Assembly: GCF_963921235.1 (NCBI RefSeq)
Contig: NC_086097.1
Span: 32,118,001 to 32,182,000, forward strand
Reading direction: 5' to 3'
Origin: Mobula hypostoma
Lineage: Eukaryota
DNA: 64,000 nucleotides
Position 1 is the first letter of the stretch. The number at the start of each line of letters is the position of its first letter. Shown piece by piece: positions 867 through 60,044 of the stretch. The notes under the pieces are model-generated. The model was given only the letters and a program-made list of their open reading frames with translations, made no database searches and was not told where the DNA came from. The position numbers were made by a program, and so were the translations under genes.

Positions 867-2644
867 CAGTAGTTCCCAAAATGGGTGATGTCGTGCCCTG
901 GGGGGCAGTGGAATTTTCTAAGGGGACGATAAAAATAACGGAGGCGGAGGGGGATGGGCTTGGTAGGGAAGGGGTAGGCTTATCTTAAGAAATTAATTAC
1001 TTATTCTAAGCATTTGATCCTCAATGCCTCATAATTGATTACAATGATCACGTAATCACCTCATCTCTTGCTAATCTCCCGTTCTCTTAGACTTTGCTCA
1101 AAGCGCATTATAGTTGTTGGAAAGCAGTGTGACGCTTCTGTATTTGGCATGTCTTGAGAAATCTGGACTGAAGAAGCCCAAGCATTTTTACTGTTTACTA
1201 CAGTAGTAGTGTTAGCTACTACGATTCCCATTCTAATCTCATAGTGATGCAATTCCAGTGAATTAGGGTATGGTATTCAATGGTGTAAAGTTCAGAATCT
1301 GACCTTTCAAATGGTTCGTACCACACTTCTCTCACCCACAGCCCAATTGAGATATCACTGCCCCACTTTATGCACCTTCAGGCAGAGAGTCTGGTCTTGC
1401 CTGAGCTATGATGATGTCATAACTTTCCCCTTTATTGATCGCAGGGCTTGAGGCTGGACTTAAACAGTAGGTGATTGACCACGGTCAATAATCCATAATG
1501 AAAATGGCAGAAGCAGACCAAATGAAAAAGAAGTGTAGACAGTATAGTGTGGGGTATCTGAAATATGGATTTATACCTGCACCAAGCAAACAACAGCAAT
1601 CAATGTGTCTGTTGTGTAAAGAAGGATTTTTTTTAAAATGAGGCAATGAAACTGTCCAGACCCCTTGAACATGTGAAGAGAATACACTCTGATAAAGCAA
1701 AAAAGAACTTTACTTATGTAATGTCCTGGTTAAGGTTGTTACAGCTATGCTATAGGTATTTCATTTTAGCAGTTTTGTCAAAGCAGTGAGTTCTGCTTTT
1801 AGAATGTTTTGGTTTCAGCTAAAAGATACAGGGCTATGATGTTCAGTTCAGGAATGCTGTGTTAGCCAATCAGGATGGTGGAATTGGGAGAGGGTTGCGG
1901 TCCCCAACCACCGGGCCATGGACCGGTACCGGGCTGCAAAGCATGTGCTACCGGGCCGCAAGGAAACAATATGATTTGGCGATAGGAGTCAGCTGCACCT
2001 TTCCTCATTCCCTGTCACACCCACTGTTGAGCTTGAACGCACGTGAGGTCATTACGCACAGTCATCCATGTCAGCGCGGGAAGGAGATCAACTCCTCGAG
2101 CTTGCAAATGATGGCGGGCTGAAAAGTATGTTTGACATAACATCTCTGCCAGCATTCTGGATTAAAGGCTGAATATCCTGAGATAGCCACGAAAGCACTG
2201 AAAACGTTGCTTCCATTTCCAACATATCTCTGCAATGAATGCAACGAAAACGAAATTGCGGAATAGACTGGACATAAGAATCCCCCTTCAAGTATCACTG
2301 TCTCCCATCACCCCTCGATGGCACCGTCTTGTTGCAGGGAAACAAGCCCAGGGCTCCCACCGATTCAGCGATATTGGTGTGTTGCAATGAGTTTATATGT
2401 TCATACGGGGAAAATATTTGCTGTGTGTTTAATATCCAAACGTTACTTAAAATGTTATAATGCTAGTGACTTATATAACCATATAACAATTACAGTACGG
2501 AAACAGGCATCTCTGCCCTTCTAGTCCATGCCGAACGCTACCCTCACCTAGTCCCACTGACCTGCATTCAGACCATAACCCTCCATTCCTTTCCTGTCCA
2601 TATACCTATCCAATTTTTCTTTAAATGATAATATCGAACCTGCC

Positions 2645-3702
2645 ACCAGCCTCCGGGTCCAACATATTATTCTCCGTAACTTCTGCCACCAGCCTCCGGG
2701 TCCAACATATTATTCTCCGTAACTTCCGCCACCTCCAACAGGATCCCACCACTAAGCACATCTTTCCCTCTCCCCCTCTCTCTGCTTTCCGCAGGGATCG
2801 CTCCCTACGCGACTCCCTTGTCCATTCGATCCCCCCATCCCTCTCCACTGATCTCCTTCCTGGCACTTATCCTTGTGAGCAAAACAAGTGCTACACATGC
2901 CCTTACACTTCCTCCCTTACCACCATTCAGGGCCCCAGACAGTCCTTCCAGGTGAGGTGACACTTCACCTGTGAGTAGGTTGGGGTGATATACTGCGTCC
3001 GGTGCTCCCGATGTGGCCTTCTATATATTGGCGAGACCCGACGCAGACTGGGAGATCGTTTTGCTGAACACCTACGCTCTGTCCGCCAGAGAAAGCAGGA
3101 TCTCCCAGTGGCCACACATTTTAATTCCACATCCCATTCCCATTCTGACATGTCTATCCACGGCCTCCTCTACTGTAAAGATGAAGCCACACTCAGGTTG
3201 GAGGAACAACACCTTGTATTCCGTCTGGGTAGCCTCCAACCTGATGGCATGAACATTGACTTCCGCTAATGCCCCACCTCCCCCTCGTACCCCATCTGTT
3301 ATTTATATACACATTCTTTCTCTTACTCTCCTTTTTCTCCCTCTGTCCCTCTGACTATGCCCCTTGCCCATCCTCTGGGTTTTCCCCCCCTCCCCCTTTT
3401 CTTTCTCCCTGGGCCTCCTGTCCCATGATCCTCTCATATCCCTTTTGCCAATCAACTGTCCAGCTCTTGGCTCTATCCCTCCCCCTCCTGTCTTCTCCTA
3501 TCATTTTGGATCTCCCCCTCCCCCTCTCAAATCTCTTACTAGCTCTTCCTTCAGTCAGTCCTGACGAAGGGTCCCGGCCTGAAACGTCGACTGTACCTCT
3601 TCCTAGAGATGCTGCCTGACCTGCTGCGTTCACCAGCAACTTTGATGTGTGTTGCTTGAATTTCCAGCATCTGCAGAATTCCTCGTGTTTGCGTTTTTAA
3701 AT
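2645..3702 (+). mobile_element. 5'-truncated Penelope-like retroelement (GIY-YIG endonuclease remnant plus terminal repeat), inserted in a CR1 3' fragment (about 2476-3761)
   Basis: VIYCVRCSRCGLLYIGETRRRLGDRFAEH...HFN...EQHLVFRLGSLQPDGMN preceded by a Cys-rich linker; two in-frame stops; pyrimidine-rich UTR; the host CR1 text rejoins across it. Confidence 0.9.
3556..3593 (+). ncRNA. Minimal type I hammerhead ribozyme motif (PLE-associated)
   Basis: Helix I CAGTC/GACTG, core CTGACGA, helix II GGGT-cccg-GCCT, GAAA, palindromic ACGT helix III, predicted cleavage after GTC at 3588. Confidence 0.8.
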
Positions 3703-4553
3703 TCTACCACTTCTACTGGAAGTTCGTTCACACCTACTTCAAGTTCCCCTGTCCTCCCTTGATAATTGACTTATCACTATATTCATGCGAGGAAAATATG
3801 CGCTGTGTGTCTAATATTAAATTTATTAGATAAACCCTTCTAAAAATGAAATTGAGTGTATTAGCCACTTATCACCTATATTCCGGTCATGATTAACAAC
3901 CCCTCCCACCCATACAGAATCACCAAAAGCAACTTGTAGAAAAAAATTGGCGTGTACGCATATGTGCAAGTCACACATGCACACTGGTGCCCGCGCAAGG
4001 CTTCATGGTCATTGTAGTCTTTCTCGGGTTAACACAACATATTTGACTGCTACTCTTGTCCGTTGGCAACCCTACCCTCCCCCCGCACCCCGGGTCAGCC
4101 GGTCCACAAGAATATTGTCAATAATAAACCGGTTCGTGTTGCAAAAAAGGTTGGGGACCCCTGTTCTAGAGGGAGCAGGGCGAAGAGAGATTTGTGATGG
4201 ACAGTGTGGTTCATGTGTTTTTTGGGGGGGGAGCTGGAAGAGGACAGGAGGGAAGATGGCTGAAGATGCTGTGGAAAGGAGTGCCCCTGTTGCAAGAAGT
4301 GCTTTGTGCAGATGAATAGCTCCAAGGAGGAAGGGCCAAAACTCCCGAGAGAGAGAGCCTGTTGGTTCGAAGTGAAGCTCGGAACGTGACGTGTGCTTTC
4401 ACACAGACCATGGGTCCAGTATGTGAGTAAAAAGGACAACTTCAAGATGAGATCCAACAATGTGCACATTTGGACTGAGCTAACTGTAATGGGCCCTTTA
4501 TTTTTCTTTCCCTTTCCTACTAACTGTTCCATAAATGTGAAATTAGTAAATAT

Positions 4554-11589: not shown

Positions 11590-12410
11590 CTTCATGCTGT
11601 TCTTCATGCCTTTACCATTTCCACCTATCACCTCCCAGCCTCTCACTCTGTCCCCACTCCCTGACCCTCCTACCCTCCCCCTTACCTATCACCTCCCAGC
11701 CTCCCACTCCGTCCCCACTCCCCCACCTGCCTACCCTCCCCCTGCCCCTGGCTTTTCCTATCATCCTCCAGCCATCCCCACTCCCCCAACCCACCCACCT
11801 TCCCCCCTTACCTATCACCTCCCAGCCTCTCACTTCATCCCCACTCCCCCACCCACCTACCCTCCCCTTCCCTTAGCTTTACCTATCATCCTCCAGCCAT
11901 CCCCACTCCCCCACCCACCCCCCCTTCCCCTGGCTTTACCTATCACCCTCCAGCCATCTCCACTCCCCCAACCCATCTACCCCACTTCCCCTGGCTTTAC
12001 CTATCACCTCCCAGCCTCTCACTCCATCCCCTCTCCCTCAACCCACCTAGCCCCCCTTCCCCTGGCTTTACCTATCACCTGTCACCTTGTACTCCTTCAC
12101 TACCACCTTATTCTGACCTCTTCCCCCTTCCTTTCAGTCCTGAGGAAGGGTCTCAGCCTGAAACATTGACTGTTCATAGCCGTAGCACTGTGTTCCCCTG
12201 GTGCCCCACGTAGATGCTGCCTGAACTGCTGAGCTCCTCGGAATTTTGGGTGTGTTACTCAGGATTTCCAGCATCTGCAGAATCTCCTTGAGTATGGAAG
12301 ACATATGGTGGATGAAGGCTTAGCCCAAAACGTCGACTGTACAGGCCCCTCTGAAGATGTTGCCTGACCTGCTGAGTTCCTCCAGCATTTTGTGTGTGTT
12401 AGTACACCAG
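11590..12410 (+). mobile_element. PLE 3' UTR and terminal-repeat remnants with an expanded C-rich tandem repeat; CpG-decayed hammerhead motif at 12135-12172
   Basis: Repeating ACCTATCACCTCCCAGCC units; CAGTC-CTGAGGA-AGGGTCTCAGCCT-GAAA-CATT-GACTG; two GATGCTGCCTGACCTGCTGAG-type blocks. Confidence 0.7.
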
Positions 12411-15888: not shown

Positions 15889-16152
15889 CAGTGGTCCCAA
15901 ACCTCCGGGCCGCGGGCCGATACATTGCCGCAAAGAATAGAGCGGTACAGCGGTGGCCGAAACGCACCCAGCACACCTTTAAGAAAAAAGCCGAAATTTG
16001 CATCGTCTCTGATCTGGGCCGATATTTACATGCCGGGCAGCACCTAATCTATTAGCTTGTTTATTTGGCTTTTTTCTTAAAGATGTGCTGGGTGCGTTCC
16101 AGCCACCGCTGCACCACTGCATTCTTCACGGCCCGGAGGTTGGGGACCACTG
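15889..16152. mobile_element. 264-bp palindromic hAT MITE
   Basis: Long inverted arms beginning CAGTGGTCCC; perfect 8-bp TSD AATTATAA. Confidence 0.9.
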
Positions 16153-16438: not shown

Positions 16439-19400
16439 CTAGTCCCACTGACCTGCACACGGACCATATCCCTCCATACACCTCCCATCCATGTATCTGT
16501 CCAATTTATTCTTAAACGTTAAAAAAGAACCCGCATTTACCACCTCATCTGGCAGCTCATTCCATACTCCCACCACTCTCTGTGTGAAGAAGCCCCCCCT
16601 AATGTTCCCTTTAAACTTTTCCCCCCTCACCCTTAACCCATGTCCTCTGGTTTTTTTCTCCCATTGCCTCAGTGGAAAAAGCCTGCTTGCATTCACTCTA
16701 TCTATACCCATCATAATTTTATATACCTCTATCAAATCTCCCCTCATTCTTCTACGCTCCAGGGAATAAAGTCCTAACCTATTCAACCTTTCTCTGTAAC
16801 TGAGTTTCTCAAGTCCCAGCAACATCCTTGTAAACCTTCTCTGCACTCTTTCAACCTTACTTATATCCTTCCTGTAATTTGGTGACCAAAACTGAACACA
16901 ATACTCCAGATTCGGCCTCACCAATGCCTTATACAACCTCATCATAACATTCCAGCTCTTACACACAATACTTCGATTAATAAAGGCCAATGTACCAAAA
17001 GCTCTCTTTACGACCCTATCTACCTGTGACGCCACTCTTAGGGAATTTTGTATCTGTATTCCCAGATCCCTCTGTTCCACTGCACTTCTCAGCGCCTTAC
17101 CATTAACCCTGTATGTTCTACGTTGGTTTGTTCTTCCGACGTGCAATACCTCACACTTGTCAGTATTAAACTCCATCTGCCATTTTTCAGCCCATTTTTC
17201 CAGCTGGTCCAAGTCCCTCTGCAGGCTCTGAAAACCTTCCTCACTGTCTACTACACCTCCAATCTTTGTATCATCAGCAAACTTGCTGATCCAATTTACC
17301 ACATTATCATCCAGATCATTGATATAGATGACAAATAACAATGGACCCAGCACTGATCCCTGTGGCACACCACTAGTCACAGGCCTCCACTCAGAGAAGC
17401 AATTCTCTACCACCACTCTCTGGCTTCTTCCATCGAGCCAATGTCTAATCCAATTTACCACCTCTCCATGTATACCTAGCGACTGAATTTTCCTAACTAA
17501 CCTCCCATGCGGGACCTTGTCAAAGGCCTTACTGAAGTCCATGTAGACAATATCCACTGCCTTCCCTTCATCCACTTTCCTGGTAACCTCCTCGAAAAAC
17601 TCCAACAGATTGGTCAAACATGACCTACCACACACAAAGCCACGTTGACTCTCCCTAATAAGCCCCTGTCTATCCAAATGCTTGTAGATTCTGTCTCTTA
17701 GTACTCCCTCCAATAACTTAGCTACTAATGACGTTAAACTCACCGGCCTATAATTTCCCGGATTACTTTTCGATCCTTTTTTAAACAACGGAACAACATG
17801 AGCCACTCTCCAATCCTCTGGCACTTCACCCGTAGACAGCGACATTTTAAATATTGCTGCCAGGGCCCCTGCAATTTCAACACTAGTCTCCTTCAAGGTC
17901 CGAGGGAATACCCTGTCAGGTCCCGGGGATTTATCTACTTTAATTTTCCTCAAGACAGCAAGCACCTCCTCCTTTTCAATCTGTACAGTTTCCATGGTCT
18001 CACTACTTGATTCCCTCAATTCCATAGATTTCATGCCAGCTTCCTTAGTAAATACAGACGCAAAAAACCTATTTAAGATCTCCCTCATTTCCTTTGGCTC
18101 CGCACTAAGCTGACCACTCTGATCTTCAAGAGGACCAATTTTATCCCTTACAATCCTTTTGCTCTTAATATACTTGTAAAAGCTCTTTGGATTATCCTTC
18201 ACTTTGACTGCCAAGGCAACCTCATGTCTTCTTTTAGCCCTCCTGATTTCTTTCTTAAGTATTTTCTTGCACTTCTTATACTTCTCAAGCACCTGATTTA
18301 CCCCCTGTTTCCTATACATTTCATACAACTCCCTCTTCTTCTTTATCAGAGTTGCAATATCCCTTGAGAACCAAGGTTCCTTATTCCTATTCAATTTGCC
18401 TTTAATCCTGACAGGAACATACAAACTCTGCACTCTCAGAATTTCCCCTTTGAAGGCTTCCCACCTACCAATCACATCTTTGCCAGAGAACAACCTGTCC
18501 CAGTCCACGCTTTTTAGATCCTTTCTCATTTCTTCAAATTTGGCCTTCTTCCAGTTCAGAACCTCAACCCTAGGATCAGATCTATCCTTGTCCATGATCA
18601 AATTGAAACTAATGGTGTTATGATCACTGGAACCAAAGTGCTCCCCTACACAGACTTCTGTCACTTGCCCTAATTCGTTTCCTAACAGGAGATCCAATAT
18701 TGCATCCCCTCTAGTTGGTCCCTCTATATATTGATTTAGAAAACTTTCCTGAACACATTTTACAAACTCTAAACCATCTAGACCCCTAACAGTATAGGAG
18801 ACCCAATCAATGTATGGAAAATTAAAATCCCCTACCACCACAACTTTATGTTTCCTGCAGTTGCCTGCTATCTCTCTGCAGATTTGCTTTTCCAAGTCTC
18901 GTTGACTATTGGGTGGTCTGTAATACAATCCCACTAATGTGGCCATACCTTTCCTGTTTCTCAGCTCCACCCATAAGGACTCAGTAGACAAGCCCTCTAA
19001 TCTGTCCTGCCTGAGCACCGCTGTAATATTTTCCCTAACAAGCAATGCTACTCCCCCACCTTTCATTCCTCTGCCTCGATCACATCGGAACCCTGGAATA
19101 TTAAGCTGCCAGTCCTGCCCCTCCTGTAGCCAAGTTTCACTAATTTCTACAACATCATAATTCCACGTGTCAATCCACGCCCTCAACTCATCCGCCTTCC
19201 CCGCAATACTCCTAGCATTGAAATATATACACCTCAGAAGATTTTTACCACCACTCACAACCTTTCTATCAGAGGATTTGCTTAAACTTTCAATATCATT
19301 TATTTTCACCCCAGCCACACTGTCAGCTCTGGCACTCTGGTTCCCATCCCCCTGCAAATCTAGTTTAGAGCCTCCCCAATAGCAATAACAAACCTCCCTG

Positions 19401-19480
19401 AAAGGATATTGGTCCCCCTGTGGTTCAAGTGTAACCCGTCTCTCTTGTACAGGTTCCACCTGCCCCAGAAGAGGTCCCAA
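16439..19480 (-). CDS. CR1 ORF2: AP endonuclease plus reverse transcriptase, uninterrupted
   Basis: 1013-aa ORF with YFNARS, SETW, YRPPN, GDFN, SDH (endonuclease) and NYRPVSLTS, DFSKAFD, GVPQGSVLGP, FADD (RT); true start codon uncertain. Confidence 0.93.
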   Translation of the reverse strand: MGPLLGQVEPVQERRVTLEPQGDQYPFREVCYCYWGGSKLDLQGDGNQSARADSVAGVKINDIESLSKSSDRKVVSGGKNLLRCIYFNARSIAGKADELRAWIDTWNYDVVEISETWLQEGQDWQLNIPGFRCDRGRGMKGGGVALLVRENITAVLRQDRLEGLSTESLWVELRNRKGMATLVGLYYRPPNSQRDLEKQICREIAGNCRKHKVVVVGDFNFPYIDWVSYTVRGLDGLEFVKCVQESFLNQYIEGPTRGDAILDLLLGNELGQVTEVCVGEHFGSSDHNTISFNLIMDKDRSDPRVEVLNWKKAKFEEMRKDLKSVDWDRLFSGKDVIGRWEAFKGEILRVQSLYVPVRIKGKLNRNKEPWFSRDIATLIKKKRELYEMYRKQGVNQVLEKYKKCKKILKKEIRRAKRRHEVALAVKVKDNPKSFYKYIKSKRIVRDKIGPLEDQSGQLSAEPKEMREILNRFFASVFTKEAGMKSMELRESSSETMETVQIEKEEVLAVLRKIKVDKSPGPDRVFPRTLKETSVEIAGALAAIFKMSLSTGEVPEDWRVAHVVPLFKKGSKSNPGNYRPVSLTSLVAKLLEGVLRDRIYKHLDRQGLIRESQRGFVCGRSCLTNLLEFFEEVTRKVDEGKAVDIVYMDFSKAFDKVPHGRLVRKIQSLGIHGEVVNWIRHWLDGRSQRVVVENCFSEWRPVTSGVPQGSVLGPLLFVIYINDLDDNVVNWISKFADDTKIGGVVDSEEGFQSLQRDLDQLEKWAEKWQMEFNTDKCEVLHVGRTNQRRTYRVNGKALRSAVEQRDLGIQIQNSLRVASQVDRVVKRAFGTLAFINRSIVCKSWNVMMRLYKALVRPNLEYCVQFWSPNYRKDISKVERVQRRFTRMLLGLEKLSYRERLNRLGLYSLERRRMRGDLIEVYKIMMGIDRVNASRLFPLRQWEKKTRGHGLRVRGEKFKGNIRGGFFTQRVVGVWNELPDEVVNAGSFLTFKNKLDRYMDGRCMEGYGPCAGQWD

Positions 19481-20321
19481 TGATCCTGAAATCTGAAACC
19501 CTGCCCCCTACACCAGTTCCTCAGCCACTTGTTCTTCCTCCAGAGCATCCTATTCCTACCCTCACTGGCACCTAGCACAGGTAGCAATCCTGAGATTACC
19601 ACCCTTGAGGTCCTGCTTTTCAACTTCCTACCAAGCTCTCTATACTCACTGTCCAGGTTCTCTTCACTCTTCCTTGCTATGTCATTGGTACCAATGTGCA
19701 CCACGACATCTGGCTGGTCACGCTCCCACTTCAGAATGTCATGCAATCGATCAGAGACATCCTTGACCCTGGCACCTGGGAGGCAACAAACCATTCTGGA
19801 TTCTCTGTCATGACCACAGAACCTTCTATCTGCACCTCTAACTATCGAGTCCCCTATCACTACCGCTCTCCTCTTTTCCCCCCTGCCTTCTGCACCGCAG
19901 AGCCAGACTCAGTGCCAGAGATCCAGCTACTGCAGCTAGTCCCAGGTAAGTCATCCCCCGCAACAGTATCCAATGCGGTATACTTGTTGTTGAGGGGAAT
20001 GGCCACAGGGGAACCCTGCTCTGCCTACCCTTTCCCCTTCCCTCGCCTGACAGTGACCCAATTTCCTGTCCTCTGCTCCTTTGGCGTAACTACCTCCCTG
20101 TAGCTACGATCTATAATCTCCTCATTCTCCCGAATGATCCGCAGGTCATCCAGCTCCTGCTCCAGTCCCCTAACGCGGTTTGTCAGGAGCTGCAGCTGGA
20201 TGCATTTCTTGCAGGTGTCGTTGTCAGGGACACCGGAGGGCTCCCTGACTTCCCACATCCTGCAAGAGGAGCATTCCAACATCCTGCCTGGCATTCTCTC
20301 TACGCTAGACAATCTGAACAA
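19360..20321 (-). pseudogene. CR1 ORF1 (zinc finger, leucine zipper, SGNH esterase), disrupted
   Basis: CSSC...CKKC plus heptad segment (20025-20321) and GDSIVRG, GAR, HIGTND, DGLHLN (19360-19860); one TAG at 20025-20027 and one frameshift near 19870. Confidence 0.85.
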
Positions 20322-30965: not shown

Positions 30966-31070
30966 ACACATCAAAGTTGCTGGTGAACGCAGCAGGCCAG
31001 GCAGCATCTCTAGGAAGAGTGCAGTCGACGTTTCAGGCCGAGACCCTTCGTCAGGACCCTAATCTAAATA
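30966..31070 (-). mobile_element. About 100-bp solo PLE terminal-repeat insertion with an intact hammerhead core (31022-31057)
   Basis: Minus strand reads GTC-CTGACGA-AGGGTCTCGGCCT-GAAA-CGTC-GAC; 16-bp duplication TCTAAATATATGTAAC at 30950-30965 and 31071-31086. Confidence 0.8.
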
Positions 31071-36124: not shown

Positions 36125-37327
36125 TCTATGCAAGGGAATAAACAGTCAAGGTTTCAGGCTGAGGCCCTTTGGCAGGAATGGAAAGAAAATGGGAAGAATC
36201 CAGAATAAAAAGGTGAGGGAGGGGGAAGAAATACAAACTGGCAGGGGATAGGTGAGGGGGAGATGGGTGGATGGAGGGAGAGGTGAAATAAGAAGCTTTG
36301 GGGGGGTGGTGATAGGTGGAAGAGGTACGGGGGTTGAAGAAGGCGGCATCTGATAGGAGAGAGAAACAAGAAAAAAAATCTGCAGATGCTGGAAATCCAA
36401 GCAAGACACACAAAATGCTGGAGGAACTCGGCAGGCCAGGCAGCATCTATGGAAAAGAGCGCAGTCGACGTTTCCAGCCGAAACCCTTCGGCAGGACTGG
36501 AGAAAAAAAAGCCGAGGAAGTAGATTTAAAAGGTGGGGGAAGGGGAGAGCGAACCACCAGGTGATCGGTGAAACCTGGAGGGGAGGAATGAAGTAAAGAG
36601 CTGAGGAGTTGATTGGTGAAAGAGAGAGAAGGCCATGCAAGAAAGAAAAAGGGGGAAGGAGAACCAGAGGGAGGCGATGGGCTGAGATAAGGTGAGAGAG
36701 GGAATCGGGGATGGGAAATGGTGAAAGGGGGAGGGATTCGGGGAGCATTACCAGAAGTTTGAGAAATTAACGTTCATGCAATTAGGTTGGAGGCTACCCA
36801 AACAGAATATAAGGTGTTGTCCCTCCAACCCAAGTGTGGCCTCATCATGACAGTGGAAGAGACCATGGATGGACATATCGGAATGGGAATGGGAAGTGGA
36901 ATTATAATGGGTGGCCACTAGGAGATCCTGTTTGTTCTGGCAGACAGAGCGTAGATGCTCGGCGAAGTGGGTCTCACCGCTATAGAGGAGGCCACACCGG
37001 GAGCACCGAACACAGTAAGTGACCCCAACAGACTCACAGGTGAAGTGTCACCTCACCTGGAAGGACTGTTTAGGGCCCTGGATGGTAGTGAGGGAGGAGG
37101 TGTAGGGGCAGGTGTGGCACTTGTTCCGCTTACAAGGATAAGTGCCAGGAGGGAGATCATTGGGGAGGGACAAATGGACAAGGGAGTCGCGTAGGGAGCA
37201 ATCCCTGCGGAAAGCAGAAAGTTGGGTAGAGGGAAAGATGTACTTAGTGGTGGGATCCTGTTGGAGGTGGCGGAACTTTCAGAGAATTATGTACTGGACG
37301 CGGAGACTGGTGGGGTGGTAGGTGAAA
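36125..37327 (-). mobile_element. Penelope-like element 3' part with tandem terminal repeats; core-mutated hammerhead motifs at 36142-36178 and 36462-36499
   Basis: Homologous to 2645-3702 on the opposite strand; cores read CTGCCAA and CTGCCGA instead of CTGANGA. Confidence 0.8.
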
Positions 37328-37906
37328 TGGATCCATTTCACATAAGTCTGCTCTTACCCCATCTTCCTGCCACCCTACCAGGGATAGAATTTCTCTCGTC
37401 CTCCACAACTTCTGACACTGGGAGGGGAAGTAATCCGATAGGAGAGGAGAGCGGACCATGGGGAAAAGGAAGGAGGAGGGGTACCAGAGCGAGGTGAGAA
37501 AAGAAGGGGAACCAGAACATGGAATGGAAAAAGAGGGTAGTGGGAGGGGGAGAAATCTGACAGGAGAGGAGAATGGACTCCTTTCCTCCCTCCACCCAGT
37601 CTTCCAACTCCAAGCACAACATCTTCACTGCAGAGTGTTTGGTCACCGGCTGAATGCCACGTGGATACTTGCTGTGTGGGAGATGGACAGAACTGTTGCC
37701 CATTAGGACAATGGGCTTGCACCAGGTCTTTCCTAACGCCGGTGCTGTGGACGGGGAGGGTTCGCACTGATACAGGAGATTCTGCAGACGTTGGAAATTT
37801 TGAGCAACACATACAAAAAGCTGGAGGAACTCAGCAGGTCAAGCAGCACCTATGGAGAGGATTAAAGAGTGAATGCTTTGGGCCAAGATCCTTCATTCAC
37901 ACTGAC

Positions 37907-38103
37907 CAGTTCCACTGCTCCAGTAACGTCTCCATGCGGAGTAACTCCTGGTGGAGTCGGTTCCTCAGGGAGAGCCAAGCATCCTCCAGGGCACGGAGAT
38001 GGGCCTCTAGCTCAGGGTTGTCCACCACCTCCAGTAGGGTCCTCCCGCTCCTCAGTGCCTCCTCCATCCTCGGCCAGCTGTCCGCAAGACTCTCCCGGAT
38101 ATG
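37907..38103 (-). CDS. SYNE2: Nesprin exon (HIRESLADSW...LLEQWN), 65 aa plus split codon
   Basis: Acceptor accctgcag, donor GTCAGT, phase 0/2; TG plus G of the next exon gives Trp. Confidence 0.9.
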
Positions 38104-41882: not shown

Positions 41883-42089
41883 ACCCTGCGTGTCTCTGTG
41901 TGAGTAGTTGTCCTTCAGGTGCCTATCAAATCTCTCCCCTCTCATCTTAAACCTGTGCTCTCCAGTTCTTGATTTCCACTTCCTGAGAGAAGAAAACTCT
42001 GTGCATTCACCCTATTATGCCCCTACTGGATGTATACACCTCAGTTTCCCAGGCTCCAAAGAATGAAGACCCAACCTACCCAAATTCCT

Positions 42090-43110
42090 ACCACTCCATC
42101 AGCCTCTGCATCTAACTCGCCATCCTCCGCAATGTCCATCATCTCCACAGGGATCCTACCACTGAACATATCCTTACCCCTCCCACTCCCTGCTTTCCAC
42201 TGGGATCACTCCCTCCATGATTCCCCTATCCATTTGCCTATCCCCACTAATCTCTCTCCTGGCACTTAATCCTGCAAGCGACCCAAGTGCTACACCTATC
42301 TATTAACCTCCTCCCTCACCTCCAGCAGAGCCCCAAGTTGTACTTCCAGGTGAGGCAACACTGCACATGCAAATCTGCTGTGTCCGACGCTACTGATGTG
42401 GCCTCCTCTACATTGGCGAGTCCCATCGTAAATTGTGGGACTGCTTCATCAAACACCTCCGGGACTTCCCGGTGGCCAAATATTTTAGTTCCGATTCCCA
42501 TTCCTGTTCTGACATGCTGGTCCAGGGCCTCCTCTTGTTCCTAGATGAGGCCTCCCTTGGGGTGGAGGAGCAACATCCTATATTCCATTCGCGTAGCCTC
42601 CAACCTGATGTCGCGAATATCAATTTCTCCTTCTGGTAAAATTTTTTTTCCCTCTTCCTTCCCTCTTCTTCCGTACCTCACTCTGGCCTCTTACCTCTTC
42701 TCACCTGCCTATCTCATCCCCCAGGTCCCCTCCTCCTTTCCCTTCTCCTATGGTCCACTCTCCTCTCCTGTCAGATTCCTTCTTTTCCAGCCCTTTACCT
42801 GTCCTACCCACCTGGCTCCACCTATCATCTTCTGTCTACCCTCCTTCCAGCCACCCCCCCCCCACCTTTTTATTCTGGTGTCCTCCCCCTTCCTTTTCAG
42901 TCTTGAAGAAGAGTCTCGGCCTGAAACATCAAATGTTTGTTTCTTTCCATAGATGCTGCCTGACCTGCCAAGTTCCTCCAGCAAATTGTGTGTGTTACAC
43001 TATAACTCAGTGTCATGAAGAAGGGCACGGCCTGAAACATTAACTGTTTGTTCCCCTCCATAGATGCTGCCTGACCTGCTGAGCTCCTCCATCATTTTGC
43101 ATGTCTTTCT
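42090..43110 (+). mobile_element. Decayed Penelope-like element 3' part with two terminal repeats
   Basis: Colinear with 2645-3702; degenerate hammerhead motifs near 42898-42935 and 43008-43046. Confidence 0.75.
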
Positions 43111-46405: not shown

Positions 46406-46629
46406 CATAAACACAAAATAATCTGCAGATGCTGCAGTCAAAGCAACACTCACAACACGCTGAAGGAACTCAGCAGGTCGGGCAGCATCCGTGGAAAAGA
46501 TTGGTCGACCTTTCGGGCCAGAACCTGACGAAGAGTCCTGACGAAGGGTTCCGGCCTGAAACGTCGGACGATCGTTTCCACGGATGCTGCCCGACCTGCT
46601 GAGTTCCTCCAGCGTATTGAGAGTGTTGT
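46406..46629. mobile_element. Fold-back (head-to-head) PLE terminal-repeat element with a central hammerhead core (46535-46569, +)
   Basis: Inverted arms about 46443-46509 and 46563-46629; CTGACGA 46538-46544, GAAA 46558-46561, CGTC; 12-bp duplication TTTAA(A/G)GCAGCT. Confidence 0.8.
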
Positions 46630-46757
46630 TTTAAGGCAGCTTCTCCCCCTCCACCATCAGATTTCGGAACAGTCCATAATCATTGTCTCACTGTTTTACC
46701 CTCATTTTGCACCAATTATTTTGTCATATATATTGTTGTTGTGATTTATAATCTACA

Positions 46758-48400
46758 TCAAAAAAAGATTTTGGAACGAAAATTGGTAATGCCTGAAACA
46801 CATATAAAAATTTTGGCAAAAAAAACATCTTAACCGCATTAATACGACCAATCAAAGTTAAATATAAGGGAAACCATTTAGATGAAAGTTGAGTAATATG
46901 GTCTATTAATGGTAAAAAGTTAGTCTTAAATAAATCTTTGTATTTACAAGTAATTTTAATCCCAAGATATGAAAAGTAATTATTAATCAATTTAAATGGA
47001 AATTTATAATATAGGGGAAGATGTTTATTAATCGGAAAAAGTTCACTCTTACTAAGATTTAATTTATAACCTGAGAAAAGACCAAATTGTGCTAATAACT
47101 CTAAAACAGCAGGAATGGATCTCTCAGGATTAGAAATATATAAAAGTAAATCATCAGCATAGAGTGATAATTTATGGGACTTTAATCCCCGAGTTATCCC
47201 AGTAATATTTGAAGATTCTCGAATAGCAATTGCAAGAGGTTCTAATGCAATATCAAATAATAGGGGACTAAGAGGACAGCCTTGTCGAGTACCACGAAAG
47301 AGAGGAAAAAAAGGTGAGTTTAAAGAGTTAGTACGAACCGAGGCTACAGGGGAGTGATATAACAGTTTAATCCAGGATATAAATTTCAAACTAAAATTAA
47401 ACATTTCAAGCACCTTAAATAAATAAGGCCATTCTACTCTATCAAAAGCTTTCTCGGCATCTAAAGAAATAACACACTCAGGAACATTTTGTGAGGGAGT
47501 ATAAACGATATTTAACAATGTACGAATATTATAAAAAGAGTAACGACCTTTAATAAAACCCGTTTGGTCTTCCGAAATAATAGAAGGAAGTACTTTTTCT
47601 AGTCTATTTGCTAATAACTTAGAAAAAACTTTAGAATCAACATTTAATAAAGATATTGGTCTATAAGATGCACATTGAGCAGGGTCTTTATCCTTCTTTA
47701 GTATTAGAGAAATTGATGCTCTATTAAAAGATTCAGGAAGTTTACCAAGTTTCAAAGAAGCCTCAAAAACCCTACCGAGCCAAGGGATCAATAAAGAAGC
47801 AAAACATTTATAAAATTCAACGGTAAACCCATCAGGGCCAGGAGCTTTCCCCAGATTCATAGAAAAAATAACATTCTTAATCTCATCCATTGTGATGGAA
47901 GTATCTAATAAAGAAGACATATCCTGTGAAATCTGAGGGAAGTCTAACTTATCTAAAAAATCATTCATATATTTAGAATCTCGAGGAGACTCTGATTGAT
48001 ATAAAGAAGAATAAAAATCACAAAAGGTTTGATTAATCCCCACATGATCCAATATCAATCGATCATTTTGGTTATAAATCTGATTGATTTGAGATTTAAC
48101 ATAATTAGATTTCAATTGATTAGCCAGCAGCTTGCCAATTTTGTCACTGTGAACATAAAAGTCACTTCTTGTTTTCTTTAATTGGTTTACAATCGAGGAC
48201 GAGAGTAGTAAACTGTGTTCCATTTGAAGTTCAGTTCTTTGTTTGTATAGCTCCTCAGAAGGAGCCATAACATATTTCTTATCAATTTCTTTAATCTTGT
48301 CCACAATTGCCATCTCCTCCTGCTTCTGTTTCTTCCTCAAAGCAACAGAATACGAAATAATCTGACCCCGAATATAGGCTTTAAAAGTATCCCAAAGAGT
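46758..48400 (-). pseudogene. L1 ORF2 RT domain (inverted segment)
   Basis: KAPGPDGF, SYRPISLLN, SLDAEKAFD, RGTRQGCPLSP, LYADD, YLGI; open throughout. Confidence 0.9.
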
Positions 48401-49676
48401 TGACTCTAAAATTTCTTCATTTATTTGGCAGAATAAGAATCCGAGACTGGGTAAAATACATTTATAGAAAGCTAAGAGAGATGGAGGTTTAGCATTACCT
48501 AACTTTAGATTCTATTATTGGGCTATTAATATTCGACATATGAAATTTTGGTTACTTGACCAGGACATACTATCTATTCCTAAATGGGTAGCATTGGAAT
48601 TACAATCTGTTCAGGGTTATACACTTGGTTCTATTTTAGGCTCCTCTCTCCCTTTTGATTCGAAACGTCTTAAGCAGGTCTCTAACCCGATAGTTAAATA
48701 TGCTTTGCGCATTTGGTTTCAATTCAGAAAATTTTTTGATCTTAATCAATTCGGGTTAGCGATTCCTATTTTAGGTAACATATTTTTTCCTCCCTCTTTT
48801 ACGGATCGCGCTTTTCAAACTTGGAAGACTAAGGGTATTTTACGGTTTTTGGATTTATTTTTAGATGGTTCCCTTATGTCTTTTGAACAATTATCTAATA
48901 AATATAACTTATCAAGAATACATTTTTTTAGATATTTACAAGTTAGAAATTTCCTAAGTACTATACTTTCTTCCTTTCCAATGCCTCCTCCTACATATAT
49001 TTTAGATTCGATAATTAACCTTAATCCATGTCAGAAAGGTGCATCGGCTATGATTTATAATATTATTATGAAACTTAGGAAAGCTCCATTTGATAAGATT
49101 AGGGTAGATTGGGAACAGGAATTGGGGCTTACCATTTCTGTGGATGATTGGGGGCAGATTTTACAATTAGTTAATACTTCCTCTATTTGTGCTAAACATT
49201 CCCTAATTCAATTTAAAGTGGTTCATAGAGCACATATGTCCAAAGATAAGTTAGCGCGTTTTTACTCGCATATTAATCCTTTCTGTGATAGATGTTCGGG
49301 GCAGATAGCCTCTTTAACTCATGTGTTTTGGTCTTGCCCTACTTTGGAAACTTTTTGGAGAGATATTTTCAATATTATTTCTAAGGTATTAAATATAGAT
49401 ATCTCTCCTCACCCTATTACTGCTATCTTTGGACTACCTAAAATTTCTAGTAATCTTTCCCCTTCAGCCCGTAGAATGATTGCATTTCTTACTTTAATGG
49501 CGAAAAGATGTATTTTACAACATTGGAAAGAGCTTAATGCTCCAACTACCTTTTTTTGGTTTTCTCAGACGATTTTATGTTTGAATTTGGAGAAAATTAG
49601 AAGTAACCTTTATGATTCTTCATTTAAATTTGAACAGATTTGGGGACCTTTTATTCGATATTTTCATTTAATGTAA
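48399..49676 (+). pseudogene. L1 ORF2 C-terminal part with CCHC knuckle
   Basis: VDSKISSFIWQNKNPR...GGLALPNF..YYWA, one TAG near 48465, CDRC...THVFWSC. Confidence 0.88.
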
Positions 49677-50143: not shown

Positions 50144-51013
50144 GACTCCCTTGTCCATTCGTCCCCCCCATCCCTCCCCACCGATCTCCCTCCTGGCACT
50201 TATCCTTGTAAGCGGAACAAGTGCTACACATGCCCTTAGACTTCCTCCATCACCACCATTCAGGGCCCCAGACAGTCCTTCCAGGTGAGGCGACACTTCA
50301 CCTGTGAGTCGGCTGGAGTGATATACTGCGTCCGGTGCTCCCGATGCGGCCTTCTATATATTGGCGAGACCCGACACAGACCGGGAGACCGCTTTGCTGA
50401 ACACCTACGCTCTGTCCGCCAGAGAAAGTAGGATCTCCCAGTGGCCACACATTTTAATTCCACGTCCCATTCCCATTCAGATATGTCTGTCCACGGCCTC
50501 CTCTACTGTAAAGATGAAGCCACACTCAGATTGGAGAAACAACACCTTATATTCCGTCTGGGTAGCCTCCAACCTGATGGCATGAACATCGACTTCTCAA
50601 ACTTCTGCTAATGTCCCACCTCCCCCTCGTACCCTATCCATTATTTATTTATATACACACATTCTTTTTCTCTCTCTCCTTTTTCTCCCTCTGTCCCCTC
50701 TCACTATACCCCTTGCCCATCCTCCAGGCTTTTTCCCCCCTCCCCCTTTTCCTTCTCCCTAGGCCTCCTGTCCCATGATCCTCTCGTATCCCCTTTTGCC
50801 TATCACCTGTCCAGTTCTTGGCTCCATCCCTCCCCCTCCTGTCTTCTCCTATCATTTTGGATCTCCCCCTCCCCCTCCCACTTTCAAATCTCTTACTCAC
50901 TCTTCCTTCAGTTAGTCCTGACGAAAGGTTTCGGCCTGAAACGTCAACTGTACCTCTTCCTAGAGATGCTGCCTGGCCTGCTGCGCTCACCAGCAACTTT
51001 GATGTGTGTTGCT
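50144..51013 (+). mobile_element. 5'-truncated Penelope-like element (GIY-YIG remnant plus terminal repeat)
   Basis: Highly similar to 2810-3656; VIYCVRCSRCGLLYIGET motif. Confidence 0.9.
50909..50950 (+). ncRNA. Minimal type I hammerhead ribozyme motif
   Basis: CTGACGA 50918-50924, helix II AGGT-ttcg-GCCT, GAAA 50938-50941, CGTC; helix I imperfect. Confidence 0.72.
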
Positions 51014-56129: not shown

Positions 56130-57967
56130 TGCTGGAAAATGACACTGGTCGACACCGGGAGACAAAGAAATGGCCAATGACTGAGTAACTTTTTTGCGTC
56201 AGTCTTCACTGTAGAAGACAGTGGCAGAATGCCAGAAATTCGAGAGTGTCAGGGGCAGAAGTGAGTGTCGTTACTATTACTAAGGTGGTGCTTGGGAAGC
56301 TGAAAGATCTGAAGGTAGATAAGTCACCTGGACCAGATGGACTACACTGTAGGGTACTGAAAGAGGTAGCAGAAGAGATTGTGGAGGCATTAATAATGAT
56401 CTTTCAAGAATCACTAGATTCTGGAATGGCTCCAGAGAACTGGAAGATTTCAAATGTCACTCCACTCTTCAAGAAGGAAGAGAGGCCGAAGAAAGTAAAT
56501 TATAGGCCAGTTAGCCTGACTTCAGTGGTTGGAAAGATGTTGAAGTCAGGGGAACTCAGCAGGTCGGGCAGCATCAGTGGAAACGATGAGTCGACTCATT
56601 GTTTCCAGTGATGCTGCCCGACCTGCTGAGTTCCTCCAGCGTGCTGTGAGTGTTGTTTTGATCCCAGCATCTGCAGATTATTTTGTGTTGAAGTCAGGGA
56701 ACTTGAAGACACATGACAAAATAGGCCAAAATCAGCAAGGTTTCCTTAAGGAATTTGTTTGAATTCTTTGAGGAAATAACAGGCAGGATAGACAAAGGAG
56801 AGTCAGTGGATTTTTTTTGGATTTTCAGTAGGCCTTTAAGCATTTGCTTAACAAGATGAGAGCCAATGGTATTACAGGCAAGGTGCGAGCAGGAATAGAA
56901 GATTGGCTAACTGGCAGGAAGCAAAGAATGAGAATAGAGGAGGCCTTTTCTGATTGGCTGCTGGTGACTAGTGGTATTTGGTATTCACAGGGGTCAGTGT
57001 TGGGACTGCTTCTGTATGCATTATATGGTTTGGATGAAGGAATTGATGGCTTTGTGGCCAAGTTTGCAGATGATACAATAATAAGTGGAGGAGCAGGTGG
57101 TGTTGAGGAAGCGATGACTCTGCAGAAGGACCTAGGCAGATTTGGGGAATAGGTAAAGAAATAGCATATAGTGCAGGGGAGTGTATGGTCATGCACTTAG
57201 GGAGAAGGAATAAAGGCATGGATTATTTTGTAAATGGGGAGAAAATTCAAAAATCAGAGGTGCAAAGGGACTTGGCAGTCCTTGTGCAGGATTCCCTAAA
57301 GGTCAACTTCCAGGTTGAGCTGATGGTAAAGGCAAATACGATGATCTCATGCATTTCCAGAGGACTAGAACACAAAGCAAAAATGTAATGCTGAGAATTT
57401 ATAAGGCACTGGTCAGACCTCATTTGGAGTACTGTGAGCAGTTTTGGGCCCCTTATATAGGGAAAGATGTGCTGGGATTGGAGAGGGTCCAGAGAAGATT
57501 CACGAGAAAGACCCCAGAAATGAAAGGAGCATTTGATGGCTCTGGGCTTGTACTAGCTGGTGTTTAAAAGAAGGAAGGAGATTTCATTGAAACATATTGA
57601 ATATTGAAAGGACTAGATAGATTGCATGTGGAGAGGATGTTTCCTGTAGAGGGGGAGTCTAGGACCAGAGGGCACACCCTCAGAATTGAGGTACATCCAT
57701 TTACAACAGAGATGAGGAAAAATTTCTTCAGCCAGAGGGAGGTGAATCTGTGGAATTCATTGCCACAGACAGCTGTGCAGGCCAAGTCATTGGGTATATT
57801 TAAGGCAGAGGGTGATAAGTTCTTGATTAATCATGGTGTCAAAGGTTACAGGGGGAAGGCAGAAGAATGGGGTCGAGAGGGATAATAAATCAGCATGATG
57901 GAATGGCGGAGCAGATTCAACGGGCCAAATGGTCCAATTCTGCTTCTATTTCTTATGGTCGTATGGC
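56130..57967 (+). mobile_element. Decayed CR1 LINE (RT and 3' end)
   Basis: KSPGPDGLH, NYRPVSLTS, SQGSVLG, KFADD, LVRPHLEYCEQFW remnants. Confidence 0.88.
56552..56685. mobile_element. Fold-back PLE terminal-repeat mini-insertion inside the CR1
   Basis: 42-bp arms 56551-56592 and 56593-56634 (2 mismatches, no spacer); 14-bp duplication TGTTGAAGTCAGGG at 56538-56551 and 56686-56699. Confidence 0.82.
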
Positions 57968-58675: not shown

Positions 58676-58867
58676 CTGGCACTCAGAGGCGTGGTCCACA
58701 TTGGCACGCAGCGAGTGGGTGAGCAGGCAGCCACTGCGGATGAACAGCCCAAGCCGGTTGTGTAGGTCCAATAGGGAGCCCCGAGCCTCGGTACAGTTGA
58801 AGGCGTCCGACTGCCCCAGCGCCTTGACTTCCTCCGCCATGTCCTGGCAAGCTGTCTCCAGCAGTAC
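58676..58867 (-). CDS. SYNE2: Nesprin exon (VLLETACQD...HASECQ), 64 aa
   Basis: Acceptor gtgtcacag, donor GTAATG, 192 nt, phase 0/0. Confidence 0.8.
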
Positions 58868-58935
58868 CTGTGACACAGGGGATCTCGTCAATGCCTGTCT
58901 TACCACCCCTCCAGCAACAGCCCTGGGTCAAACTG

Positions 58936-60010
58936 CAACTGAGGGAGGGGTCGTACTGAGGGAGCATCGGTAATGAGGCAGGGTCACACTGTGGGAGCGT
59001 CGGTAATGAGAGAGGGTCACACTGTGGGAGCGTCGGTAATGAGGGAGGGTCACACTGTGGGAGCGTCGGTAATGAGGGAGGGTCACACTGTGGGAGCAGC
59101 AGTAATGAGGGAGGGTCACACTGTGGGAGCGTTGGTAATGAGAGAGGGTCACACTGTGGGAGCGTCGGTAATGAGGGAGGGTCACACTGTGGGAGCAGCA
59201 GTAATGAGGGAGGGTCACACTGTGGGAGCGTCGGTAATGAGGGAGGGTCACACTGTGGGAGCATCGGTAATGAGAGAGGGTCACCCTGTGGGAGCAGCAG
59301 TAATGAGGGAGGGTCACACTGTGGGAGCGTCGGTAATGATAGAGGGTCACACTGTGGGAGTGTCGGTAATGAGGGAGGGTCACACTGTGGGAGCAGTGGT
59401 AATAAGGGAGGGTCACACTGTGGGAGAGGAGGTACTGAGGGAGGGTCACACTGTGGGAGCGTCGGTAATGAGGGAGGGTCACACTGTGGGAGCGTCGGTA
59501 ATGAGGGAGGGTCACACTGTGGGAGCAGCAGTAATGAGGGAGGGTCACACTGTGTGAGCATCGGTAATGAGAGAGGGTCACACTGTGGGAGCAGCGGTAA
59601 TAAGGGAGGGTCACACTGTGGGAGAGGAGGTACTGAGGGAGGGTCACACTGTGGGAGAGGAGGTACTGAGGGAGGGTCACTGTGGGAGCATCAGTAATGA
59701 GGGAGGGTCACACAGTGGGAGCGTCAGTAATGAGGGAGGGTCACACTGTGGGAGCAGCAGTAATGAGGGAGGATCACACTGTGGGAGCATCGGTAATGAG
59801 GGAGGGTCACACTGTGGGAGAGGAGGTAATGAGGGAGGGTCACACTGTGGGAGAGGAGGTACTGAGAGAGGGTCACACTGTGGGAGAGGAGGTAATGAGG
59901 GAGGGTCACACTATGGGAGAGGAGGTACTGAGGGAGGGTCACACTGTGGGAGCATCGGTAATGAGGGAGGGTCACACTGTGGGAGCAGCAGTACCGAGAG
60001 AGGGTCACAT
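58936..60010. repeat. 33-bp minisatellite, about 32 copies (GGGAGCGTCGGTAATGAGGGAGGGTCACACTGT)
   Basis: Direct tandem units with recurring variants (GCGTCG, GCAGCA, GAGGAG); starts about 70 bp upstream of the acceptor at 58868. Confidence 0.95.
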
Positions 60011-60044
60011 TGCAGCAGGGGCACACTGAGGGATGGATGGTACT

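Follow-up and report, generated by a model that had tools for sequence, protein, structure and literature searches.

A 64,000-nucleotide stretch of the Mobula hypostoma genome (the window) carries at 3556-3593, on the plus strand, what is almost certainly a minimal type I hammerhead ribozyme lying in the pseudo-LTR of a Penelope-like element (PLE), a member of a high-copy, Neptune-type ray family. The explanation that best fits the observations as a whole, in which we place scarcely less confidence, is that this is the minimal hammerhead of canonical PLEs, slow and conditional in its source elements, and that the window copies are fossils.

A Minimal Hammerhead at 3556-3593

An earlier note on this DNA had described a hammerhead at this position, and the sequence reads as it had claimed: CAGTC / CTGACGA / A / GGGT-CCCG-GCCT / GAAA / CG / TC / GACTG. 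The predicted parts are:

3556..3593 (+), minimal type I hammerhead with an extra A, a palindromic CG and a GUC cut site; predicted cut 3588/3589
3556-3560/3589-3593 (+), helix I, 5 bp, CAGUC/GACUG
3561-3567 (+), C3-A9 core, CUGACGA
3568 (+), extra A between 9 and 10.1
3569-3580 (+), helix II, 4 bp, GGGU-CCCG-GCCU, with a G10.1-U11.1 wobble
3581-3584 (+), GAAA, followed by the CG palindrome (3585-3586), U16.1 (3587) and C17 (3588)

The catalytic core (C3 U4 G5 A6 N7 G8 A9, G12 A13 A14 A15.1, U16.1 H17) has no lesion between 3561 and 3588. Helix I, which closes a type I motif with 4-5 bp, has 5 bp in this copy, and helix II is accompanied by the extra nucleotide between 9 and 10.1, an A (A3568) that recurs in all 34 motifs aligned below. 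In place of helix III stands the 15.2-16.2 palindrome, read as ACGU at 3584-3587, whose C is kept in 91% and whose G is kept in 97% of 32 relatives. A pattern derived from the copies matched the window seven times and 100 shuffles not once; a generic descriptor (core, both helices, palindromic spacer) matched twice, at 3561(+) and 31054(-), against one match in total over 40 shuffles.

The Rfam check that the earlier note had suggested recovers no hammerhead: hammerhead families gave no match at E<=5 over the window, nor at E<=10 in a 351-base stretch, a miss that probably reflects the lack of helix III and loop I. Rfam's miRNA-like matches at 56543-56642 coincide with an inverted pseudo-LTR pair and are false. 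Folding of the isolated motif gave unremarkable stability (z -1.35 to +0.27 in seven stretches), a measure that says little for motifs taken singly. Such ordinary stability and the empty Rfam search are what would be expected if the hammerhead look had arisen by chance in one founder and had merely been copied by the repeat, as is the finding that the core is kept no better than the downstream block within the window. We give that idea almost no credence, because distant families share both the core and its place, with different compensating helices.

The Host Element and Its Family

The hammerhead sits near the 3' end of a truncated element with the following features:

2641..3697 (+), 5'-truncated copy of a putatively Neptune-type PLE, with a 44-base duplication at its 5' end
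2685..3269 (+), dead ORF remnant with thumb end, linker and GIY-YIG endonuclease; two premature stops
2874..2900 (+), C-x4-C-x2-C linker, CEQNKCYTC, of Neptune/Nematis type
2982..3206 (+), GIY-YIG domain PF01541, 23 bits against a cut-off of 22.6, E=1e-4
3270..3555 (+), pyrimidine-rich 3' untranslated stretch, differing between subfamilies
3607..3653 (+), conserved block after the hammerhead; the shorter of two family 3' end points lies near 3653
3654..3690 (+), optional tail of ~35 bases; element end at 3690-3701

No convincing target-site duplication was found around the copy at 2641-3697. Its ORF remnant (2685-3269) has 25 longer homologues, headed by proteins of Mobula hypostoma (P0002, 91% identity), Hypanus, Rhincodon, Stegostoma and Chiloscyllium, and reverse-transcriptase (RT) motifs precede the endonuclease in the close homologues P0002, P0005 and P0009; the 64-kb window itself holds no PLE RT core. 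The family has two end points, near 3653 and 3690, and the tail is present on one arm only in all three inverted pairs; beyond 3690-3701, contigs of other runs continue into A/T-rich unique flanks. Penelope insertions are described as having a 30-40 base tail on one end and inverted, 5'-truncated arms (bioRxiv 2021.04.23.441226, cited here, like the other sources below, from the part of its text available). The C-terminal GIY-YIG domain, the Cys linker, the RT-bearing relatives, the tail and the inverted arms together support the identification of the element as a canonical PLE. As for the clade, the available text of the same source describes a CX2-5CxxC linker ahead of the endonuclease in Neptune and Nematis alone, so that the linker points to one of these two; Neptune is preferred because only Neptune and Poseidon are reported among the PLEs of vertebrates (bioRxiv 10.64898/2026.07.22.740005, in part).

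Family records on 341 bases number 19,472, 32,270 and 9,904 contigs in three related runs and 22 in a fourth. With the 22 pieces in the window, and on the basis of the window and the contigs of related runs, these thousands of contigs in three of four runs agree with the earlier note's proposal of a high-copy, ribozyme-bearing PLE family. Three of the five endonuclease-bearing copies (2641-2686(+), 37326(-) and 42086(+)) start within ~15 ORF bases at an LVLTYHP motif and are 67-74% alike, and this shared start may represent a reverse-transcription stop or a common non-autonomous form. A candidate conserved short ORF after the motif was rejected, since its frame differs among subfamilies. A gene model from zebra shark reads through into a peptide, with LMKGLRPKRQL at its end, that matches one encoded by the copy at 50909.

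Position and Covariation in Relatives

Related loci were taken from metagenome contigs, the best 80 of 489 being used, and these supplied 55 endonuclease ends followed by 200 bases or more of sequence (a further five were too short on that side). Among these best 80 loci the core lies within 500 bases after the endonuclease in 32 of the 55 ends, 31 of them at 83-211 bases, compared with 6 of 400 reverse-strand control windows (Fisher p=3e-28, some loci being near-duplicates). The remaining 23 ends had no motif by the simple pattern.

Of the 34 motifs aligned, 30 come from these relatives after removal of two duplicates, two are upstream motifs and two are window copies. Across nine helix pairs, 83.7% of 306 cells are paired and 73 two-sided changes occur; none of 500 shuffles scored as high, and partners slid out of register were 18-40% paired. 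Covariation had been named in the earlier note as a check on the motif, and the helices do covary, with counts that are inflated by relatedness and by the choice of structure; even so, the signal is strong. Two-sided changes were found at all 5 helix I pairs across the relatives, and the search pattern made no demand on helix I. Between the relatives and the window copy, the helix I strands are 19% identical, the flanks 25-29% and the core 95%, the last partly by selection. Rays and even distant invertebrate-type elements retain the catalytic letters. A chance origin is refuted by the position and covariation seen in relatives, and 19% helix I identity excludes one recent family as their source. 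As far as the alignment can be read, it establishes that base pairing has been under selection across the source lineages, in keeping with a genuine PLE hammerhead.

In the related runs, agreement of other ray subfamilies with the reference is confined to the interval from 3555/3556 to 3593/3594 and breaks down beyond either edge, as read from the 24 of 934 loose ends listed. One related family has CCGACGA for CUGACGA (U4C) in several copies (L013, L021, L026, L027, L058, L064, L072 and others). A viral collection yielded no match to the DNA pattern and no relative among 26 candidate stretches, and a collection of prokaryote genomes gave two pattern matches. One of the two, at L081:1495-1535(-), shows a similar minimal hammerhead in A/T-rich DNA, on a bacterial metagenome-assembled contig that is possibly animal DNA in a bacterial bin.

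Other Copies in the Window

An nhmmer search found 22 pieces of the surrounding repeat in the window and none on the reversed window, with no strand bias (13 plus, 9 minus), and 15 candidate motif sites were scored individually. An intact motif is present in two of the 22 pieces, and these lie 27 kb apart on opposite strands. The principal sites besides 3556 are:

31023..31058 (-), second intact motif; helix I of 4 bp including a G-U pair
12135..12172 (+), damaged copy; CATT for CGTC, changing the palindrome from CG to CA and the cut site to UU
46533..46570 (+), damaged copy; extra G after GUC, helix I with only 2 contiguous pairs
50913..50950 (+), damaged copy; C-A mismatch in the helix I pair beside the cut, A10.1-U11.1
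36462..36499 (-), damaged copy; A6C, helix II broken; after the GIY-YIG remnant 36730-37326
42898..43047 (+), two decayed tandem motifs 111 bases apart; after the GIY-YIG remnant 42086-42630
56549..56689 (no strand assigned), inverted pair of pseudo-LTR pieces; centre 56592/56593 at the predicted scissile bond

Candidates with such mismatches were rejected by Perreault et al. (PMC3088659, available in part). The intact motif at 31023-31058(-) belongs to a short solo copy that starts with helix I; its target-site duplication is 16 bases long. The copy at 46533-46570 forms the right arm of an inverted pair, the left arm being 46409-46525, the copy at 50913-50950 follows the GIY-YIG remnant 50144-50605, and the inverted pair at 56549-56689 is bounded by a 14-base target-site duplication. 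All three tandem pairs (42903/43014, 12140/12307 and 36494/36175) are damaged.

Much of what the earlier note had said of these copies holds. The five helix II loop sequences are exactly as it gave them, all five GIY-YIG remnants in the window are followed by a repeat that carries the motif (decayed motifs counted), and its estimate of at least 10 intact or decayed motifs accords with a covariance model that finds nine at E<0.01 and a tenth at E=0.19, its training set containing two window copies. Three statements need narrowing. Five cores had been called intact or near-intact; those at 3556 and 31054(-) keep all elements, but those at 12135, 46535 and 50909 are damaged. The same five had been placed after GIY-YIG remnants, which is correct for 3556 and 50909, whereas the other three are pseudo-LTR pieces without a remnant. 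Finally, the exchange of a G-U for an A-U pair is present in the 50909 copy, but it is one-sided and confined to a single copy, and hence not covariation.

Identity to the majority letter across 10 window copies is 0.92 in the core and 0.83 at other motif positions, and in the downstream block (9 copies) it is 0.92. The earlier note had set core-versus-flank conservation as a test, and this measure is ill-suited to dead copies. The window copies are mostly broken, passive fossils.

A Wobble at Position 11.1

The 3556 copy has U at position 11.1 and so a G10.1-U11.1 pair; all 32 distant relatives have C there and form a G-C pair. In the related runs U11.1 accounts for 18% of depth in X19, 34% in X21, 78% in X1 and 51% in X9, and C11.1 for 82%, 66%, 22% and 49% in the four. 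Decay at two further CpG sites of the motif amounts to 3-11% in the three deep runs, and the excess of U11.1 over this level implies that source elements with the wobble were amplified. This suggests that U11.1 arose at a CpG and was carried by active source elements. Taken by itself, the window, with 8 U11.1 against 4 G12A among 15 sites, is compatible with plain decay.

Amplification of wobble-bearing source elements is also what one would expect if the fold were retained as a signal to the element's protein, for binding or folding, or as a promoter or splice signal, with cleavage vestigial in the ray lineage. Published results lean the same way, in that ribozyme mutants of the Anolis element inserted normally in vitro (PMC11167929, in part) and Naiad elements spread without hammerheads (bioRxiv 2021.04.23.441226, in part). 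The preservation of the catalytic letters between rays and distant invertebrate-type elements speaks against a vestigial role, as does the fact that G-U still pairs and that natural hammerheads have even U-U at 10.1-11.1 (PMC3088659, in the available portion). On this evidence we regard vestigial cleavage as unlikely, if a serious contender.

Proposed Working of the Ribozyme

By analogy with other families, we lean towards the view that source elements of the ray family really cleave in vivo. Drawing on published work on those families, we propose a slow, conditional ribozyme. In a lone RNA, which has no helix III, a predicted rod fold would pair G5-G8 with C15.2-C17 and hide the core; a cut after GUC would then need a second copy, pairing through the ACGU palindrome, and would probably be assisted by the element's own protein. 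Cleavage of this kind could serve to trim the tandem precursor RNA of source elements, the ribozyme being normally off and switched on by partner and protein in tandem transcripts.

In a folding model the 3556 monomer forms the G5-G8/C15.2-C17 lock with a probability of 0.98, 4 kcal/mol below the open form. The lock exceeds a probability of 0.5 in 8 of 17 intact motifs (of the 34 aligned), all eight having C or U at position 7, and in all 17 the active dimer comes out as less stable than a pair of separate monomers, in a model that omits magnesium and tertiary terms. Minimal PLE hammerheads have been reported to be inactive as monomers and of low activity as dimers (Cervera and De la Pena, PMC4209133, in part). 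The ribozyme of the Anolis element cut only with the element's protein, and the available text reports no RNA-seq reads ending at its cut site (PMC11167929). Eight of nine Xenopus retrozyme dimers were without cleavage (bioRxiv 10.64898/2026.07.22.740005, in part). Within the window no dimer can form in cis, because the two intact motifs are on opposite strands; since they are also 27 kb apart and the tandem pairs are damaged, local RNA cleavage is unlikely.

The 5' Ends of Short Copies

In 15 of 21 anchored copies (one of the 22 pieces could not be anchored) the 5' end falls in or just after the motif, 10-62 bases upstream of 3615, a clustering that exceeds the expectation of a single exponential (p about 1e-5, against a crude null). 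Target-site duplications of 13-16 bases occur at three short solo copies or pairs. Both observations would suit a separate non-autonomous retrozyme or SINE-like unit, mobile via hammerhead-cut RNA, and animal retrozymes are reported to derive from pseudo-LTRs (bioRxiv 10.64898/2026.07.22.740005, in part). Such a unit is improbable in our view, given that the window has no tandem array of intact units and its tandem pairs are decayed, that the 5' ends spread over 50 bases with several downstream of the motif, and that both 3' ends are common to the endonuclease-bearing copies, as simple truncation of the PLE predicts.

A further, doubtful possibility is that the 5' ends of short insertions record germ-line hammerhead cleavage or RT arrest at the folded ribozyme, to which the 15 of 21 starts and the inverted pair centred exactly on the scissile bond would point. 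Against it, the exact cut is not over-represented among the short copies (4 of 12 events fall near it, p=0.24), and the 24 of 934 loose ends listed form no cluster at 3589. The inversion junction at 56592/56593 lies in a palindrome able to fold back unaided. In distant relatives, none of nine inverted arms ends in the motif; two short direct copies in one locus (L022) do. Joints ending in the motif (10 of the 15 listed, of 25) were discarded, as subfamily divergence can produce them. In a family of thousands of copies, a sharp genome-wide peak of 5' ends at the bond, if there were one, would show in vivo that the template is cut by a Penelope hammerhead, and the C11.1 and U11.1 subfamilies would provide a natural comparison. 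Evidence of this kind is called lacking in the available text of the papers cited here.

An old pseudo-LTR copy at 37897-37915(-) starts right at a putative host exon end, where GTCAGT could be a splice donor.

Neighbouring Features of the Window

An open frame of 1022 residues at 16439-19908(-), with endonuclease and reverse-transcriptase domains and an ORF1-like frame ahead, is by its reading frames a young, nearly intact LINE. A LINE with inverted structure occupies 46724-49676, with an RT frame at 46724-48511(-) and a C-terminal-looking frame at 48468-49676(+). The LINE fragments in the window are presumably of CR1/L2, L1 or RTE type. Short coiled-coil-like frames scattered over 9135-59000(-) (Pfam E=0.11; Atlas 0.88) weakly suggest exons of a spectrin-repeat, nesprin-like host gene. 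An array of 33-base units at 58683-60036 has open repetitive frames on both strands. The long-armed inverted repeat at 15949-16110 may be a small DNA transposon, and next to it 15720-15886 matches 3762-3906.

Comparison With Known Systems

Minimal hammerheads in the pseudo-LTRs of metazoan PLEs, including the fish elements Neptune, Poseidon and Xena, were described by Cervera and De la Pena in 2014 (PMC4209133, in part), so that the class to which the earlier note assigned the motif is a known one. No cartilaginous fish is named in the available text of that paper, and retrozymes were found in the one cartilaginous fish sampled by Li, Clavereau and Pollet (bioRxiv 10.64898/2026.07.22.740005, in part). 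Our literature search found no paper on this ray or shark Neptune family, which Repbase or paper supplements may list. The present work adds a ray Neptune family to the class described in 2014 and shows that Rfam misses such motifs. This family has a very high copy number, many truncation points that can be dated and, at the best-conserved pair of helix II, two natural variants; it could be used to test whether Penelope hammerheads cut in vivo and why they persist.

Animal non-LTR retrozymes resemble the ray repeat in having type I hammerheads related to pseudo-LTRs, but they consist of tandem units that each hold an intact ribozyme (bioRxiv 10.64898/2026.07.22.740005, in part), and the 64-kb window has no such array. 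Assignment to the non-LTR retrozymes, which needs intact hammerheads in at least two consecutive units, was rejected, all tandem pairs in the window being damaged.

A closer parallel is PAc, the Poseidon element of Anolis carolinensis (Frangieh et al. 2024, PMC11167929, in part), which likewise has a pseudo-LTR hammerhead and two 3' ends that define a tail. Its reverse transcription starts 85-92 bases after the cut (computed from PMC11167929), compared with ray ends at ~65 and ~102. PAc differs in clade, the Cys linker being described for Neptune and Nematis only in the available text of bioRxiv 2021.04.23.441226, and in that its ORF starts in stem II; its activity has been measured, that of the ray motif being predicted.

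With the Rfam hammerhead families (Hammerhead_1 and relatives) the ray motif shares identical catalytic core letters, although it is not matched by them. Compared with the minimal hammerheads of PMC4209133 (in part), it has a helix II of 4 bp where Schistosoma examples have 7-8 bp, and the ray lineage has G10.1-U11.1 where the class typically has a highly conserved G10.1-C11.1. By every testable defining feature that can be read from its letters, the ray motif belongs to this class of minimal PLE hammerheads.
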